Assembly (NCBI GenBank): GCA_050575255.1
Contig: JBNZDD010013429.1
Location: 129,732-193,731, forward strand
Direction: 5' to 3'
DNA length: 64,000 nucleotides
Origin: Harriotta raleighana
Lineage: Eukaryota
Positions 39,001 through 60,000 of this stretch are shown here, in pieces. The position numbers are program-made. The stretch's first letter is position 1. The number at the start of each line of letters is the position of its first letter.

Positions 39001-42000
39001 GAATTAACATTGTCAAGCCTAGATGTGATATAAGCAAGAAGCACACATTTGGTATCATATTTATTCCCTGGGAACAAATATGTAACAAATTTTAAATGGA
39101 TTACATTTGTTTTCCTTTGTAGTTTCAAATATCCTTGCCTCTGTTTCCTGACGTTTATTTTCTCTGGCAGACCAGTATCCAGTAAAATGACTGAGATGCA
39201 CCTGGGTGATGTTGTAGGCGGAGGAACAGACTTGCCTGAGGAGCCTGATACACAAAGAAAAGAAAAGGAAGAAGAGATAAATAAACGTGGACAATGGGGC
39301 AACAAATTTGAGTTTCTTCTCTCTGTGGGTGGCAGCATAATTGGTTTCAATACGATTTTTCAGTTTCCTGGACTTTGTTTCCGTAATGGAGGAGGTTTGT
39401 ATCAAGGAAATTTTTATACCTGTTTAATCCTGTTTACAACCAAGGTTCTGGGCTAGGATTCCCTAGAGTGTGAAGGGGATGTTGTGCAAAGCTATTTTGT
39501 CATGGTTTTTATTTATTCGAGAGTTTGCAGTAAGGAGCCAGCATCAGAATTTAGGATTTGCTGCAAAAATATGACTAAGGATTATATAATTCCAATTCAG
39601 GAGAGCTTCACCTGACCTATATATGGTCTGGAAGAGCTTTATGGAGTCCTGCAACATATTGGTTAGACACTCTCCTCACAAGCGAGAGCATCGGGGTATG
39701 ATTCCCAGGCAGGGCAGTTTTGTTGCACCACACACCTCTGTTAACCTAATAGTAAACAGGAACCTGGTTCTTAGTCAATTGGTGATTCACTTTCCAAGAG
39801 TAATAATCCCTTTAAAAAAAGTTCAATCCACTCACTCAAACCACAATTGTTTGTGGGTCACTACTGTGTGCGATTGGCTATGACGTTTCACCAACAACAT
39901 ATAAAGATAATCGCAATACAGCATATTCTGTGAAGCACTTTGGGACATCTCAACAATGTGGTAAAACGCAAGGATTATTATAGGGATTATTTTAGGCATT
40001 TCACAGCCCTCTGACCTCAATATTGATTTCAACAATTTCAGACCATAACAGTTCACCTTCCTCCTCCCCCTCTGCTGTGCCCATTTACTGAATCATCTGG
40101 GACGCAGACACACCTTTTCTCTCAAATGCAAAATACTGGATTTTTGAAACAAAAGCACAAGGCACTGAGAACACATAGCGGGTAATGCATCTGATCAGAT
40201 AGAAAAGAAAATAATATTATTATGATGCCATCAGGCCCAGTGGCCAAAGTATCAAGCAGTAGCTCAAGACACAATACAAACCATTTTAGGGATCCTTGTC
40301 CTTTATTTCGGTGTATTTGCAGCTTGATTATAAGTGTCAAATTTTGATCAAAAGCGGACACCCAGCGGACACCCAGCACTATATTTTGGATAATTCAAAC
40401 CAGAGAATCTATGTCAATTCCATGTAGAATTTTCCATGCTTGAAATGCCCCCCCACACTTTCACCAAAGGGGAAAGCGCTTTTCTAATTCTAATGTGTAT
40501 CTGGCACAGTTTAGCAAGTCCCAAGACTTGGGAACTCCACAGGACACATTACAGCTGGAATTAACTAGCTAAAACTGCATAGATTCCCATTGAAAGCTCC
40601 GTCCAGCAAGTTTCCCCCTCCTTGTCCAACTCAGACCAGTCACCCCATTAAAGCTTTGCTTTACAGGGTGAACAGGAGCTGAGTGGGAAGAATCCCTGTG
40701 TCTAGTCACCGCTCCTCCCCTCCAAGTCCAGCTGATCTGGTCTGTCATCAGCAGTGCCCTGGAGCCACCTTGCTGAGGATCTGTAACATCAACACACAAA
40801 ACTGACTTGATTGTAACATTCCTTGGCCAATTAATGTCACCAGCCAGAATCATGGAGGCCCTCCTTACATAGTTATACTTATATAGTGCCCTCCACACTG
40901 GACGTCTGGATAGTGTCTCAGGGAACCAAGTTCCCAACTGCCTGTTCCAGTTGCTGCTGTATTCACCTGCATTCATTATGTATATTCTGTGAAGCGCTTT
41001 GAGATATCCTCGCAACATGAAAGCTCTTTATATCAAACGACTGATAGAGAAAAAGCAAGATTGAGAGGATGGCATTGGATTGTTTATTTCATAAGCAATA
41101 AAAATGGAATAGCTATTCTCTTGCTTGCTTCATTCTGGAGACTGTTGCCAATTTGTCTAGAGGAAAGAACTGGCAGATTCCTAATTCTGGGGTGAAATGT
41201 TAATAATAATTGCCTTGTCTTTGAATTGTCTCAAAGCGCTTCACAGAATATACTGTAAAGTGAATTGACTGTATACTTGTGGGGGAAACACAACAGCCAA
41301 TTGCCAGTCAGTGAGACACTCATAAGCTTTAGGAATCATGCTTGAGTCTTTGTATTGCAGCTTTAATAGACATTTAAATGAATCACAGCAGTTTTCAATG
41401 GTAAGCTGAAGCTTTTCACAGCTCTCCTTAGTGAGAGAGGAACACACAAAATTTAGTGTGACCAGTCACAGGAAACAAGATGTTTGGTCCATGAAATAAC
41501 GATGATTTCCATGAAGAGGCCCGAATGGGGAAAGAAAAGCTTAGAGACAGCAACTGGAAGATGCAAAACGAGAATGATCAAAAAGCCATATGTGCATTTC
41601 AATTGTTTCTCAATTGTTCATTGAAGCTCAGCCAAGCTCTCCCCTCGGAAACATCATTAATGTTCTTTCAGAGAAGCGCTCACTGTTCCTGTTATCTTTA
41701 ATGAGTTATCTTTAATGAGAGTTCTATTTGTAGGAACCCTGTAGCCCGGTCCCGGGATCCGTTATTATGAAGCGTTCTGAGACGCTGTCCAGGGTGGAGG
41801 GCACTATATAAATCAAAATTATTGTTGTGGTTAGTGATTAGAGCACTCACCTTGCAAGCAAGGGACCCGGGTTTGATTCCAGGCAGGGCGAAACCTTGGG
41901 CAAATTTCCTTATTCTACACGCCTAATAATAATCCCTCAAGAAAAAAAACAACAATAATTTGACCATTCAACCCACAACTATTCATGGGACACTGCTGTG

Positions 42001-57000: not shown

Positions 57001-60000
57001 CTTATTGATCTAGTTTCCATATGTAATGGCCTAGTCAATGTCCTGCNATTGACCTAGTTTCCATATGTAATGGCCTAGTCAATGTCCTGCATCCATATAT
57101 TTCCTAAGAATGGTAAATGTACCATTTTTTCCACAGAGGATACGCCATCTTACTGCCCCTGTTGACAGCAAGCCACAGTTGGATTTCAGGGTTCTTCCAT
57201 TGGACACCATGAACAGTCAACATTGAAAACAAAACACTTATAAAACATGATGCACCAAACGTTAACATTCAGTTTCACCAAAAAATAAAGGCAGTATGGA
57301 ATGTTTGACAACAAATCCCGAATTTGAGTCGCTTTAAAATCCGCAGTTAAGTCATACCACAAAGCACGCTGCTGCCAGAAGCTCCTGTTATTTGCGAGTT
57401 TTGTGTTCTTGTGTGGCTGATTTGTTTTCATTTAGTTTTCTTTCCCAGCTTGAAATTGTCTCACAAATTGGCTTAAGAAGGGGAAAAAGCACAACCACTT
57501 GCAATTCATCTTTTATTCAGATGGAAAATAACACCCCACCATCACCACCGTCTTTCTCCCCCTCCCCCTGGCTCGCCCCCGGGATCCGTTGTTGTGAAAC
57601 GCTCTGAGATGCCTTCCAGCTTGGAGGGCGCTTAAAAATCCAAGTTGTTGTTATTGAAGCACTTTGAGACATCTAGAAGACATGAAAAGTGCTATATCAA
57701 AATGCAAAGACTATTATTGTATTATTATATCTTGAATATTCTTAAACAGCCATTACTGCTGTTTTTTGAAGAGTAATATGTAATAATCAAACAGTTAATC
57801 AAACAGTCCAGACAAATTTGAAGTAGAAATATAATCTAACAATATCAGTGTATATCAGTATTTGCAAAAAAAATTAAGAAAATTGTCAAAACAAGTAAGG
57901 AAAATGAGCAGGGATCATCAACTGACCAGACAATGGACTTCAGAAGAGCAGCAGCAGCAATAACAACAACTTCGATTTATAGAGCGCCCACAACGCTGGA
58001 CAGCGTCTCAGAGCGCTTCTCAGAGCAGCGTTCCAAAGAGAAAAAGAGAGAACATTTATATAGCGACAAAGGGCACAAGAGATGGGGGAAATCAGAGAAG
58101 AAAGACTTATTTGATGTAGAGCATATGCTCAGAGAGGATGAATGTTGTTCATGTCCCCATTAGCCTTCATACTCCGCGATTACAGTCTCCAAAGTCCACA
58201 AGTTGTCCAGCACACACTGTATGTAATCTTGAAAACTAATTAACAGTAGTAACCAGGTGATGTTTTTGTAATAATGAAAGTTGTTGCATTGTAATTCCTG
58301 TAATTCCAAAGTTGAATATGGCTAATGTATACTGCCATAGATATAAAACAGAATTCATTGCAACACTAGTTACTGTTGCATTGGCAATCATTATTTTCAC
58401 ATGTATAAATGAAATTAAATAAATAGATGCCTTCAGTCAACAGAACCATTCTATTTCATACTCAATATCTTAACTGTGAATCAAGTGTAGCAAGAAGTGT
58501 TCTTACCATACAACATTTTACAGACTTGTTTGCGTGCAACAAAATTGTGACTATGGTGCTGCAATACAATTGTGGAGAATGACTCACAGCCAATTAAAAC
58601 ATCTCATCTTGGAATATGCCATTAACCTAATTCCAATTGATTTCCTCCTATACCTTCATCACCTCAAAACTTGCTTTCTCAAATGTCCTTCTCAACCAAC
58701 CTTTTCAGATCAAACTCTCACGAGCTGCAAACAATAAATAATAGAAAACGCCACAATTCCCAAGCTCTGAATACTGTACATGAACGTGTGTTCACAAACT
58801 CAGAATCCAGGTAATACTTTCTAGCAATTATTGTCCCAAGCCTCAGAGGTTCCTCAAAAGCCATCTCGGTTAATTTTTACATGTGTGTGGACACTAAACT
58901 CTCTATCTTTGCATCCACCCTCAACTCAAGGTCCACTGTTGTCATGATGGATTGTCTGTCAGACATCAAGTTATGGATGAGAGTTGACTTTCTCCAATTA
59001 AATGACAAACAGATTGAGGCCCTCCTGCTTGGCTCCTTTCAGTACCTCATCGAAGGCCCTGACAGCATCACTATACAGCATCACTACGCATACTCCACCT
59101 CAATGACCCAGTACAGAACCTTGGTGTCTTATTTGACCCTCATCAGTCTTTTAAATTAATGTCCTTACCATAATCTATTTTGCCTTTCCCTACCTCTGCA
59201 TCGATGCCCACCTCCGCCACTACCTCTGCCATCAGACCGACAAAGACCCTCATCCATGTTTTCATTAAGTCAAGGCTTGACTATGCCAACTGCCTGCTCA
59301 CTAGACTTTCCAACTCTTTCCTCCACAAACTGCAGATTATTCAGAACCTTGCAGATCACCCCCCAGTCTTGCCCAGATTCACTGCCTCTCCATTCCCCAG
59401 AAGATCGAGTTTAAGATACTCGTTGCCAATGTTAAAGCTCTCCACAGAATTTCTTCCCTTTACCTAAGCAACCTACAAAAACGTTAGTCCCTCTGTTTGG
59501 CGGGCATTACCCTGGTCCATGTACCCCTTGACAGTTAAGACATTTTGTCTTTTTACCCAAACCCTCTGGAATTCTATGCCATTGTCCCTCCAACGTCCTC
59601 TCTTGCCTCCTTCAAACCTGCCTAAAGGCCTTCCTCTTTGACCGTGCCTTCAGTCATCCTACCACCTCCACACCCTTTGCCCTTGCCCTCCAGCCCTCTT
59701 GACTCCAATTACCAGAACGGGTGTGAGTTCTTGTCTGCCCAATGCCTTGGGATGCCCTCCTGAAATGAGAGGAGCTATATAAACTTCCAGTAGGTAGAGA
59801 AACAAAATTGTTATCAATGACAAAGCCATCTCAGACGATCATTTAATTCCCCTTAACTCCTCCACCCATCTCCACCCTGGAAAAAAATCTCTCCCCATTC
59901 CTTCTCCAGTACCCTGGAGTCATCTAAACACCTCCCACTCTGGGCTTCCTCTTGTAACAACGTAACCTCCCTGACTACTCTCCTTCACAACTCCCTCTCC

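Follow-up and report, generated by a model that had tools for sequence, protein, structure and literature searches.

An intact SLC6 paralogue of Harriotta raleighana with altered ion, substrate and outer-gate sites

Can an SLC6 gene stay intact when the residues at its sodium, chloride and substrate sites have been replaced, and if so, what might its product still do? The question is raised by a 64,000-nucleotide stretch of the Harriotta raleighana genome (contig JBNZDD010013429.1; hereafter the window), which holds such a gene at 39187-57226 on the forward strand and, as an internal control, a canonical GAT2-like paralogue at 10496-31692 on the reverse strand.

Structure of the gene and its closest relatives

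The gene comprises 14 exons, whose coding sequence runs to 1752 nt, or 583 codons and a stop. Each of the 13 introns is GT-AG, giving 26 of 26 intact splice dinucleotides, no exon contains an in-frame stop, and no split codon spells one; three single Ns lie in introns 2 and 13 only, leaving the exons free of N, and none was filled. The initial annotation had placed the gene at these same coordinates and described all 14 exons, the splice sites and the frame as intact, and that description holds. When all 299 stop-to-stop open segments of at least 22 amino acids on the plus strand of 38800-57800 were scanned against Pfam, 12 matched PF00209 (SNF) in colinear order, covering profile positions 1-521 of 524; 11 of these exceeded the 27-bit cut-off, the remaining one being exon 11. 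The EL2 cysteines and one glycosylation sequon are kept. We conclude that the SLC6 paralogue is genuine and intact and belongs to the GAT2/BGT1/GAT3 branch.

Splice junctions were picked by reading frame and with the help of a predicted Callorhinchus milii protein of 586 amino acids (UniRef name 'sodium- and chloride-dependent GABA transporter 2-like'; hereafter P0001), one match among 30 candidates. Across exons 1-13 the two proteins are identical at 437 of 547 residues (79.9%), with no indel and with every exon equal in length, and sequence comparison identifies P0001 as the orthologue, or closest relative, of the window's paralogue. The C-terminus of P0001 follows the window's intron 13, not exon 14, and looks like intron read-through; were intron 13 retained in the window, the frame would stop after 18 further codons.

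The canonical neighbour consists of 14 exon-like blocks colinear with canonical proteins and stands head to head with the gene under study, its start codon 7.5 kb away. Both genes are divided into 14 exons in the same way, and exons 2, 3 and 5-12 match in length, but they are only 51.8% identical, and in a neighbour-joining tree P0001 did not group with the neighbour as its sister. At 476 of 550 residues the neighbour agrees with C. milii 'GABA transporter 2 isoform X2' (P0124). The best relatives of both window genes are C. milii proteins, in keeping with the cartilaginous-fish setting proposed earlier.

Residue changes along the protein

For residue mapping, the exons were compared with solved chains of BGT1, GAT3 and GAT1, with GAT1 numbering obtained from offsets to 7y7v/7sk2 and BGT1 site definitions taken from PMC13381564; identities below are to P0001, and all exons lie on the forward strand. 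Exon 1 (39187-39394; PF00209 35.3 bits, profile 1-43; 55/69 identical) carries the start codon, the N-terminus and TM1, and among solved chains BGT1 matches it best (9lnm_A, E 1.7e-13, ungapped, offset +2, with +10 for GAT1). It keeps the inner-gate Arg, Trp and Lys, and its TM1b is rewritten (L56F, G57N, N58T, W60F, R61Q and Y64G in BGT1 numbering). Exon 2 (42332-42466; 61 bits, profile 38-90; 37/44 identical), which spans TM2 and the start of IL1/TM3, retains the chloride-site Tyr (BGT1 Y78). In exon 3 (45180-45320; 49.9 bits; 40/46 identical), which encodes TM3 and the start of EL2 and matches solved GAT3 (E 4e-11; offsets +124 to GAT1, +117 to BGT1), the substrate-clamp Tyr (BGT1 Y133) has become Asn. 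Exon 4 (46124-46181), a short EL2 exon in a variable loop, gave no Pfam match in the open-segment scan and was located by tblastn with P0001 (E 0.004; 12/18 identical); it contains one Cys and one N-x-S sequon and is 10 residues shorter than its counterpart in the neighbour, a length shared by P0001. The end of EL2 and TM4 are encoded by exon 5 (46937-47069; 57.1 bits, profile 156-205; 36/44 identical), where 0 of 13 conserved columns are changed, and TM5 and EL3 by exon 6 (47846-47980; 61.5 bits; 41/45 identical).

Exon 7 (49798-49901; 35.7 bits; 26/34 identical; offsets +282 to BGT1, +283 to GAT1) encodes TM6, in which the Gln shared by the chloride site and outer gate reads Asp and one conserved Gly reads Cys; Phe294, Ser295 and the inner-gate Tyr309 are unchanged. 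TM7 and the start of EL4 lie in exon 8 (51205-51329; 40.2 bits; 30/41 identical; BGT1 9lnm_A, E 2.1e-12, offset +317), which keeps the Na1 Asn and the inner-gate Asp and has Lys in place of the chloride-site Ser. Exon 9 (52293-52405; 31.1 bits; 28/37 identical; GAT3 E 2.3e-5; BGT1 offset +359) covers the EL4 tip, altered from P to Q and from G to E, and TM8, where the canonical L-G-L-D-S-Q has become L-A-F-N-F-Q. Exon 10 (53555-53692; 31.7 bits; 37/46 identical; GAT3 E 2.9e-12; BGT1 offset +396), with the end of TM8, IL4 and TM9, leaves the inner-gate Asp unchanged. TM10 in exon 11 (54307-54409; 23.9 bits, below the cut-off; 27/34 identical; BGT1 E 7.9e-4, offset +442) has Glu for the outer-gate Asp and another four invariant residues altered. 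Exon 12 (55375-55475; 34.4 bits; 27/33 identical) encodes EL6 and TM11, and exon 13 (55685-55852; 29.0 bits; 41/56 identical), which encodes TM12 and ends in a consensus donor (CAG/gtaagt), is one codon shorter than in the neighbour, a shortening also seen in P0001.

The least certain exon of the model is exon 14 (57137-57226; acceptor ttttttccacag), a C-terminal tail of 29 codons plus stop that begins Arg-Ile like the neighbour's last exon, with which it is identical at 8 of 29 residues; it is absent from P0001. It escaped a tblastn search with 11 canonical proteins. A directed local alignment put it at the expected place in BGT1/GAT2 tails, with a best score of 48 against a maximum of 42 over 30 shuffles; 67 of 120 best alignments began within the final 12% of the target. 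Downstream of the stop, a polyA-type hexamer follows at 58 nt.

Taken by function, Na1 has Thr in place of its Asn side-chain ligand, and at Na2 Asp has given way to Asn and Ser to Phe. Two of the four chloride ligands differ, Gln now being Asp and Ser being Lys; in the carboxylate clamp Asn replaces both Gly and Tyr; and the outer-gate Arg and Asp have become Gln and Glu. The hinge glycines of TM1 and TM6 are lost. At key side-chain sites, 10 of 10 are changed in P0001 and the window protein is likewise non-canonical at all ten; at the inner (cytoplasmic) gate, none of six sites is changed in either protein. The solved chains bear out the substitutions that the initial annotation had read by eye in TM1 (G65N, N66T, W68F and R69Q, to which L64F and Y72G are added here), at Y140 of TM3 (to N), at Na2 (D395N and S396F), in EL4 (GPGL to GQEL) and at D451 of TM10 (to E), together with the set it had listed as kept (R44, W47, Y309, D410, F294, S295 and N327); its GAT1 numbering was right wherever offsets were checked. 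It had missed that the chloride site is rewritten as well (GAT1 Q291 to Asp, S331 to Lys).

Of 133 columns invariant in 158 canonical relatives, 36 are changed in the window protein and none in the neighbour, whose listed ion, gate and substrate-clamp residues are all canonical. The listed ion, substrate and outer-gate sites are changed more often than other conserved columns (9/15 versus 46/187, Fisher p 0.0058), in agreement with the earlier view that change is concentrated at functional sites; at the inner gate the count is 0/5. With so many invariant columns changed, the scaffold is less untouched than had been described.

Might the protein nonetheless be a Na+/Cl- coupled transporter whose changed residues are compensated elsewhere? 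The backbone ligands BGT1 G51, I53, I54 and L391 are kept, as are S294, N326 and Y78, but the canonical side chains are missing from all ten key side-chain sites. Published work places the GAT1 Na2 site at G59, I62, L392, D395 and S396 (PMC10352132) and reports that single conservative changes at several of the key sites abolish or impair GAT1 transport: R69K, Q291N and D451E impair it (PMC10352132), R69K blocks it and an aromatic swap at W68 costs surface expression and function (PMC10137170), and Q291 mutants show neither transport nor currents (PMC2792339). We consider continued coupling highly improbable and, as far as sequence can show, refuted. The SLC6 paralogue probably no longer performs ordinary Na+/Cl- coupled uptake.

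Retention and selection

The observed divergence between the window protein and P0001 was compared with 300 neutral walks to the same divergence, with replacements scored by BLOSUM62. The 110 observed replacements averaged +0.318 against a neutral mean of -0.567 (sd 0.158, maximum -0.109), placing them 5.6 sd on the conservative side, and the walks acquired 7.5 stops on average, with 0 of 300 stop-free. Between the same two species, 110 of 547 amino acids differ in this gene (20.1%) versus 74 of 550 in the neighbour (13.5%), a replacement rate 1.5 times as high. Judged by these comparisons, which bear on selection indirectly, the paralogue is common to C. milii and under purifying selection that appears somewhat weaker than that on its canonical neighbour.

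The paralogue might instead be an unprocessed pseudogene, or be close to loss, and still be open by chance in two slowly evolving genomes. The number of invariant columns lost and the faster replacement would suit such a history, as would continued loss after the species split, with four further losses in the window, three in C. milii and none in the neighbour (Fisher p 0.034). The donors of exons 1 (GAG/gtttgt) and 9 (CAG/gtactg) also look weak, and there is no CpG-rich promoter upstream of exon 1 (CpG o/e 0.26). Against this stand the intact splice dinucleotides and the contrast in indels, with none in 547 codons versus two events already in the approximately 30 codons of probable read-through at the end of P0001. 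Because the replacements are far more conservative than drift would produce, and drift would be expected to have introduced some 7.5 stops, we regard decay as unlikely and the gene as retained.

How the altered sites themselves have evolved was examined at the 32 invariant columns changed in both species. At 18 of these the two proteins have the same derived residue, pocket positions included (Tyr to Asn, Leu to Phe, Asp to Asn), and none of the 18 is charged. The other 14 (44%) differ between the species, compared with 89 of 414 variable columns (21%), making the changed invariant columns the fastest-changing class between the two proteins. At seven rewritten key sites the window/C. milii pairs are N/D, T/A, Q/M, D/H, K/N, F/V and E/Q, the chloride-site Asp and Lys of the window protein being His and Asn in C. 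milii. The differing pairs look like released constraint rather than a newly fixed site, although some constraint may remain at the old sites, since many of the pairs are chemically close (N/D, E/Q, F/V). The initial annotation had proposed neofunctionalisation rather than decay: its second half agrees with the conservative replacements and the lack of stops and indels, whereas neofunctionalisation as such is not supported, no newly fixed site being evident.

Possible functions and comparison with known transporters

The extent of change at invariant columns, their rapid divergence and the untouched inner gate lead us to infer a product that folds and is trafficked as SLC6 transporters are, but has lost the capacity to concentrate GABA, betaine or taurine-like substrates by Na+/Cl- coupling. 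Our tentative preference, held at slightly below an even chance, is for a 'pseudo-transporter', non-concentrative and retained for a role that needs the fold and the inner half, not the old binding sites. Such a protein would lose its Na+, chloride and substrate sites while keeping the fold and the cytoplasmic gate network, and might serve canonical SLC6 proteins as partner or regulator, for example the product of the adjoining GAT2-like gene. We favour this reading because the positions that once formed the sites now diverge fastest between the two species, because no compensating fixed charge is common to both, and because the TM1 and TM6 hinge glycines are gone. Its support spans two species, one represented by a predicted protein. 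Counting against it, the 18 identical derived residues fit a new carrier equally well, and a working carrier would also need an intact inner gate.

A neofunctionalised carrier or channel, in which the fold cycles or leaks, uncoupled or newly coupled, with a non-carboxylate solute, is possible, though we think it rather unlikely. An intact gene under purifying selection, the shared pocket residues, the wholly kept inner gate, and the EL2 cysteines and sequon all agree with it, as do the Asp and Lys at two chloride-ligand positions: according to PMC10137170, a carboxylate placed in the chloride site, as in GAT1 S331E, can replace chloride. Because the same two residues are His and Asn in C. milii, however, the species have no ion-site design in common. 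The columns that differ, the missing hinge glycines and the uncharged character of the shared derived residues likewise speak against a carrier, and TMAO and urea as its solutes are guesses.

Returning to the pseudo-transporter reading, an AlphaFold2 model of P0001 (pLDDT 79.9, pTM 0.82) matches GAT3, BGT1 and TauT structures with target-normalised TM-scores of 0.86-0.89; because canonical relatives were part of the alignment behind it, the model is no proof that the altered protein itself folds. GAT3/SLC6A11 (9qo9, 9lk7, 9cp4) is the model's best structural match (0.87-0.89; 53-54% identity) and, among solved chains, fits exons 3, 9 and 10 best. BGT1/SLC6A12 (9lnm; 53% identity to the model) does so for exons 1, 8 and 11 and is a near relative by sequence similarity. 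GAT1/SLC6A1 (7y7v, 7sk2, 8gnk), the comparator of the initial annotation, has the fold in common with the window protein but is more distant, at 42% identity to the model; GAT3 and BGT1 are the nearest solved relatives and GAT1 is not the right comparator.

BGT1 and the window protein are colinear except for an EL2 that is 10 residues shorter in the latter. Of the BGT1 inner gate, the pairs W39-Y308, R36-D409 and K42-D318 persist without exception, and Q299 is Gln in the window protein and Leu in C. milii; changed are Asn58 at Na1, D394 and S395 at Na2, Q290 and S330 at the chloride site, the outer-gate pair R61-D452, the clamp residues G57 and Y133, and E52. GAT3 differs from the window protein at the same ion, clamp and outer-gate set. 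Chloride-independent NSS members and GAT1 S331E/D are described in PMC10137170 as having a carboxylate among the chloride ligands, as does the window protein with its Asp at the Gln position. Here, by contrast, the Asp sits at another position, is accompanied by Lys at the Ser position and is not matched in C. milii, and the sodium sites, which chloride would counterbalance, have been lost too. ApcT and CaiT, carriers of the LeuT fold that work without Na+, have a fixed positive charge where Na2 would sit. The window protein and P0001 have no basic residue in common there, presenting instead Asn and Phe/Val.

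An intact SLC6 gene beside a canonical paralogue

The initial annotation had described an intact SLC6 gene of 14 exons, and GT-AG introns, an open frame and colinear family matches bore this out. When the 299 open segments on the + strand of 38800-57800 were scanned against Pfam, 12 matched PF00209 (SNF) in colinear order across profile positions 1-521 of 524, 11 of them exceeding the 27-bit cut-off, which places the gene in SLC6 / NSS by a family-profile match over its whole length. A splice model guided by P0001 (a Callorhinchus milii protein of 586 residues that is its orthologue or closest relative) and by a frame-aware list of donors and acceptors yielded 14 coding exons at 39187-57226 (+), with a CDS of 1752 nt; hereafter, we refer to this as the rewritten SLC6 gene. 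All 13 introns are GT-AG, no stop was found in frame or at a split codon in the 14 exons, and the exons and 13 introns together showed no stop, frameshift or loss of a splice site that would disable the gene. Three single Ns fall within introns, leaving the exons without N, and exons 2, 3 and 5-12 have the same lengths as in the neighbouring SLC6 gene described below. The gene was searched exon by exon, while questions about the whole protein were put to P0001 instead.

The weak point of the gene model is exon 14, which was not found by tblastn with 11 canonical proteins. Its acceptor is good, its tail aligns locally to the correct place of BGT1/GAT2 tails (48, compared with a shuffled maximum of 42), and 8 of 29 residues are identical to the last exon of the neighbour gene. 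Arg-Ile opens the last exon in both genes; a passage of PMC3581386 describes an RI/RL motif as an ER-export signal of the SLC6 family. Retention of intron 13 would end the frame 18 codons further on. Residues 557-586 of P0001 align to 55853-55945, which is intron 13 read straight on, a stretch in which the window has a stop. As its C-terminus follows the intron in this way, the P0001 model probably includes a retained intron at its end in place of the last exon. P0124, the C. milii 'GABA transporter 2 isoform X2', has an unrelated tail directly after the exon 13 boundary. Two tandem duplications, each with one N inside, lie in introns of the rewritten SLC6 gene: 66 nt x 2 in intron 2 (43354-43484) and 44 nt x 2 in intron 13 (57004-57092), the latter ending 45 nt upstream of the exon 14 acceptor.

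The neighbour gene (10496-31692, -) is a canonical SLC6 paralogue of 14 exon-like blocks, arranged head to head with the rewritten SLC6 gene. Its listed conserved ion and gate sites are all canonical, and it is 86.5% identical to P0124, its C. milii orthologue, and approximately 72.5% identical to three shark GAT2-like proteins. These identities place the source of the window among chondrichthyans, nearer to C. milii than to sharks but distinct from C. milii. At the position of the substrate residue Glu52 of BGT1 the neighbour gene carries Gly, which also occurs there in the shark GAT2-like proteins and in some amphibian BGT1-like ones. The only long N run of the window (10658-12470) lies in its intron 13 and accounts for long reading frames that appear spuriously among the mechanically listed ORFs. 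Neither SLC6 start is CpG-rich (CpG o/e 0.26 upstream of exon 1 of the rewritten SLC6 gene and 0.39 at the neighbour start).

Within intron 8 of the neighbour gene, and antisense to it, lies an ENV-like open frame (19529-20713, +; PF00429, retroviral ENV polyprotein; E 1.6e-22, profile 325-545 of 560) that encodes 377 aa from an ATG at 19580. This was the only Pfam match among the 46 open segments of 18500-23190, in which no gag, pol or integrase was detected, and no LTR pair was seen as a direct repeat of at least 80 nt within 13500-23300 by an ungapped method. CpG o/e is highest at 18401-19300 and 20301-21100 (0.71-0.90, compared with 0.32 overall), stretches that flank and overlap this frame. 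Two reverse transcriptase segments (PF00078), at 6219-6512 (+; E 5.6e-7) and, between the two SLC6 genes, at 36069-36329 (+; E 1.4e-6), are probably retroelement fragments. Three matches to the Rfam tRNA model RF00005 (36.5-43.8 bits), intronic at 26307-26378 (+) and 28795-28850 (+) and within intron 13 of the rewritten SLC6 gene at 56242-56313 (-), may be the heads of tRNA-derived repeats rather than genes.

Ion sites, clamp and outer gate are dismantled

Residue offsets were taken from ungapped single-exon alignments to human BGT1 (9lnm_A) and GAT1 (7y7v, 7sk2), and the BGT1 site lists from a portion of PMC13381564. These solved-chain alignments confirmed the substitutions previously read by eye in GAT1 numbering (G65N, N66T, W68F, R69Q, Y140N, D395N, S396F and D451E) and revealed two more, Q291D and S331K. 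In BGT1 numbering, the Na1 site has Thr for N58 and keeps S294 and N326, leaving its set of side-chain ligands incomplete, and the Na2 site has Asn for D394 and Phe for S395 while keeping the backbone ligands G51, I54 and L391, so that the set of Na2 ligands typical of SLC6 / NSS is incomplete as well. The chloride site of eukaryotic members is broken by Asp for Q290 and Lys for S330, with Y78 and S294 kept. At the outer gate, R61 is replaced by Gln, D452 by Glu, Y133 by Asn and S457 by Gly, with F293 kept; the salt-bridge pair R61-D452 (R69-D451 in GAT1) has become Gln/Glu in the window and Met/Gln in C. milii, and the bridge is lost. The substrate site retains Q299 and has Asn for G57, Ser for E52 and Thr for C399. 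Seven S1 residues of GAT1 (G63, G65, L136, Y140, F294, S295 and S396) are, according to a section of PMC10137170, fully conserved across the GAT subfamily; four are kept here (G63, L136, F294 and S295), and G65, Y140 and S396 have become Asn, Asn and Phe. The inner gate, which had been read as retained, is indeed unchanged in both the rewritten SLC6 gene and P0001 at all six residues of the network W39-Y308, R36-D409 and K42-D318.

Published mutagenesis at R69, W68, Q291 and D451 indicates how severe such changes are. Parts of the literature report that GAT1 transport is impaired by R69K, Q291N and D451E (PMC10352132), that R69K blocks transport and an aromatic swap at W68 abolishes surface expression and function (PMC10137170), and that Q291 mutants show neither transport nor currents (PMC2792339). 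The residues thus argue against Na+ (and Cl-) dependent substrate transport, and a still-coupled transporter, for which the kept backbone ligands and the retained S294, N326 and Y78 might be cited, is highly improbable. We infer from the residue pattern that Na+/Cl- coupled concentrative uptake would be absent from the product.

The extent of change was gauged against an alignment of 158 GAT2, BGT1 and GAT3-type proteins of 580-660 aa (most with source names, a few without), into which the window exons were entered as separate fragments. Among the 133 columns invariant in all 158 proteins, 36 are changed in the rewritten SLC6 gene and 35 in P0001, compared with none in the neighbour gene; N58, Q290, S330, R61 and D452 are each invariant in 158/158. 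The initial annotation held that change was concentrated at the functional machinery, and this held in part: where column conservation reaches 98% or more, changes are enriched at the listed ion, substrate and outer-gate sites (9/15, compared with 46/187 of the other columns; Fisher p 0.0058), but a quarter of the remaining conserved core has moved as well. None of the five inner-gate columns at this level of conservation has changed. When 179 other stored SLC6 proteins were checked, only P0345, an unnamed representative of 444 aa from the GAT group, approached this state, 8 of its 10 key sites being altered. The identity of P0345 to P0001 (42%) does not exceed that to canonical proteins (47-49%), which makes it an independent case, and its sequence suggests that a site loss resembling that of P0001 may have happened independently elsewhere.

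Origin of the gene and constraint since the split from C. milii

The search with exon 1 returned one protein among 30 candidates, P0001, which UniRef names 'GABA transporter 2-like'. Across exons 1-13, 437 of 547 residues are identical between the two and all exon lengths are equal. Beyond this pair, the relatives listed for P0001 reach no more than 45-56% identity (best 120 of 2122), and the 119 listed after it are GAT2, BGT1 and GAT3-type proteins; the best solved chain for each exon is BGT1 or GAT3, except for exon 7, where it is the creatine transporter. Both sequence and structure therefore place the closest relatives in the GAT branch (GAT2 / BGT1 / GAT3). In a neighbour-joining tree (39 taxa, 583 columns), P0001 forms one very long branch outside every clade, its smallest distance being 0.709, to a reptile BGT1-like protein; by sequence, it lies within the GAT2/BGT1/GAT3 branch, and the tree does not tie it to any one of SLC6A11, A12 or A13.

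A recent duplication of the neighbour gene was rejected as the origin, because the two genes are 51.8% identical, no closer than the rewritten SLC6 gene is to shark GAT2-like proteins (approximately 53%) or P0001 to tetrapod BGT1-like proteins (up to 56% among the relatives listed), and because the tree leaves P0001 and P0124 unjoined. Synteny was addressed by tblastn with fused models carrying KDM5A or second transporter copies, which gave no match outside the two SLC6 genes; neither KDM5A nor another marker gene was found in the window, and a Pfam scan of 143 open segments from the intergenic region and flanks gave two matches at E up to 0.001, both of them reverse-transcriptase fragments. 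The proposed check for orthologues yielded P0001 in C. milii, but no shark or ray orthologue among the best 120 of 2122. A phmmer search of P0001 against 1.84 billion representatives returned 17516 matches, none above 58% identity; because clustering at 50% hides this lineage, the result is silent on further orthologues.

Structure was modelled on P0001. The AlphaFold2 model (78 aligned sequences; pLDDT 79.9, pTM 0.82) has the twelve-helix LeuT fold, and as the alignment contains canonical relatives it is weak proof of that fold. Foldseek matched it to GAT3 (53-54% identity), BGT1 (53%), TauT (45-46%), the creatine transporter (44%) and GAT1 (42%), and most of the 50 matches listed have target-normalised TM-scores of 0.86-0.90 (0.84-0.91 in all), those to GAT3, BGT1 and TauT being 0.86-0.89. 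The structure model that had been called for accordingly recovered the fold to be expected and pointed to the appropriate comparators, but says nothing on function.

Selection was judged by three indirect protein-level comparisons with C. milii. The 110 replacements that separate the rewritten SLC6 gene from P0001 have a mean BLOSUM62 score of +0.318, with 70.9% scoring at least 0, and so do not show the neutral pattern of a pseudogene: 300 neutral mutation walks to an equal number of differences had a mean of -0.567 (sd 0.158, maximum -0.109), took approximately 176 substitutions each and hit 7.5 stops on average, and never zero. For the neighbour gene and P0124, 74 of 550 residues differ, with a mean of +0.635. 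No indel separates the rewritten SLC6 gene from P0001 across 547 codons, while the roughly 30 codons at the P0001 end, which correspond to intron 13 in the window, already show two indel events as well as a stop on the window side. Finally, divergence from the orthologue is 20.1% for the rewritten SLC6 gene compared with 13.5% for the neighbour gene (1.5 times). Taken together, replacement pattern, absence of indels and this ratio of divergence speak against the gene having been a pseudogene at any time after the two species separated, and that reading is rejected. The earlier proposal of retention rather than decay is upheld by the conservative replacements and by the lack of indels and stops, and the comparisons indicate purifying selection on the encoded protein that is somewhat relaxed relative to the canonical gene. 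Such weaker constraint is what a gene on its way out might show; set against the intact frame and conservative replacements, that alternative is given little probability. The rewritten SLC6 gene is real, intact, shared with C. milii and not drifting neutrally.

Candidate roles of the product

Thirty-two invariant columns are changed in the rewritten SLC6 gene and in P0001 alike; at 18 of them the two proteins have a derived residue in common, and at 14 (44%) they differ, compared with differences at only 21% of variable columns. Differing machinery sites on the list read, window/P0001, N/D, T/A, Q/M, D/H, K/N, F/V and E/Q. No charged residue is among the shared derived residues, and a fixed charge substituting for sodium, common to both proteins, was accordingly rejected. 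The rewritten SLC6 gene has other residues in place of conserved TM1 and TM6 glycines, and loss of invariant columns has continued after the split (four in the window and three in C. milii, compared with none in the neighbour gene; Fisher p 0.034). Given the differences between species, the lack of a shared charge, the glycine losses and this continued loss, the former ion, clamp and outer-gate sites thus seem to behave as released positions. The gene retains 94 invariant columns together with the inner gate, the cysteines of EL2 and a glycosylation sequon.

We tentatively favour, at somewhat less than even confidence, the view that the product acts as a non-concentrative pseudo-transporter and is retained for a role that depends on the fold, which could be, for example, the partnering of canonical SLC6 proteins. 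The re-purposed uncoupled carrier put forward in the initial annotation would also fit an intact gene under constraint, and the release of its former sites makes it the less likely reading of the two. In a more specific form, a holocephalan SLC6 would have turned into a carrier or pore that works independently of Na+ and Cl- and passes a carboxylate-free solute, its pocket now lined by Asn in place of the clamp Tyr and by Ser in place of the BGT1 Glu, with Phe/Val occupying Na2. We consider this form improbable. If true, it would be a natural example of the SLC6 fold converted to uncoupled transport, possibly linked to the unusual way in which cartilaginous fishes manage their osmolytes.

The C. 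milii protein is already known from databases, under a GABA-transporter name, and the function that its UniRef name implies (GABA transport) is unsupported by its sequence. No open-access paper was found on the rewritten gene, its site loss or an SLC6 paralogue without ion sites, which is weak evidence of novelty.

Sodium sites, a chloride site and an outer gate are defining traits of SLC6 transporters, and the residues that define them do not vary among the 158 relatives of the GAT2/BGT1/GAT3 branch. A vertebrate SLC6 member that lacks those residues, yet has stayed open and evolves conservatively in two holocephalan lineages, may be a non-catalytic 'pseudo-transporter' or else an uncoupled carrier. 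Set beside its canonical relatives, it is a natural experiment on which parts of the fold serve something besides coupled uptake.
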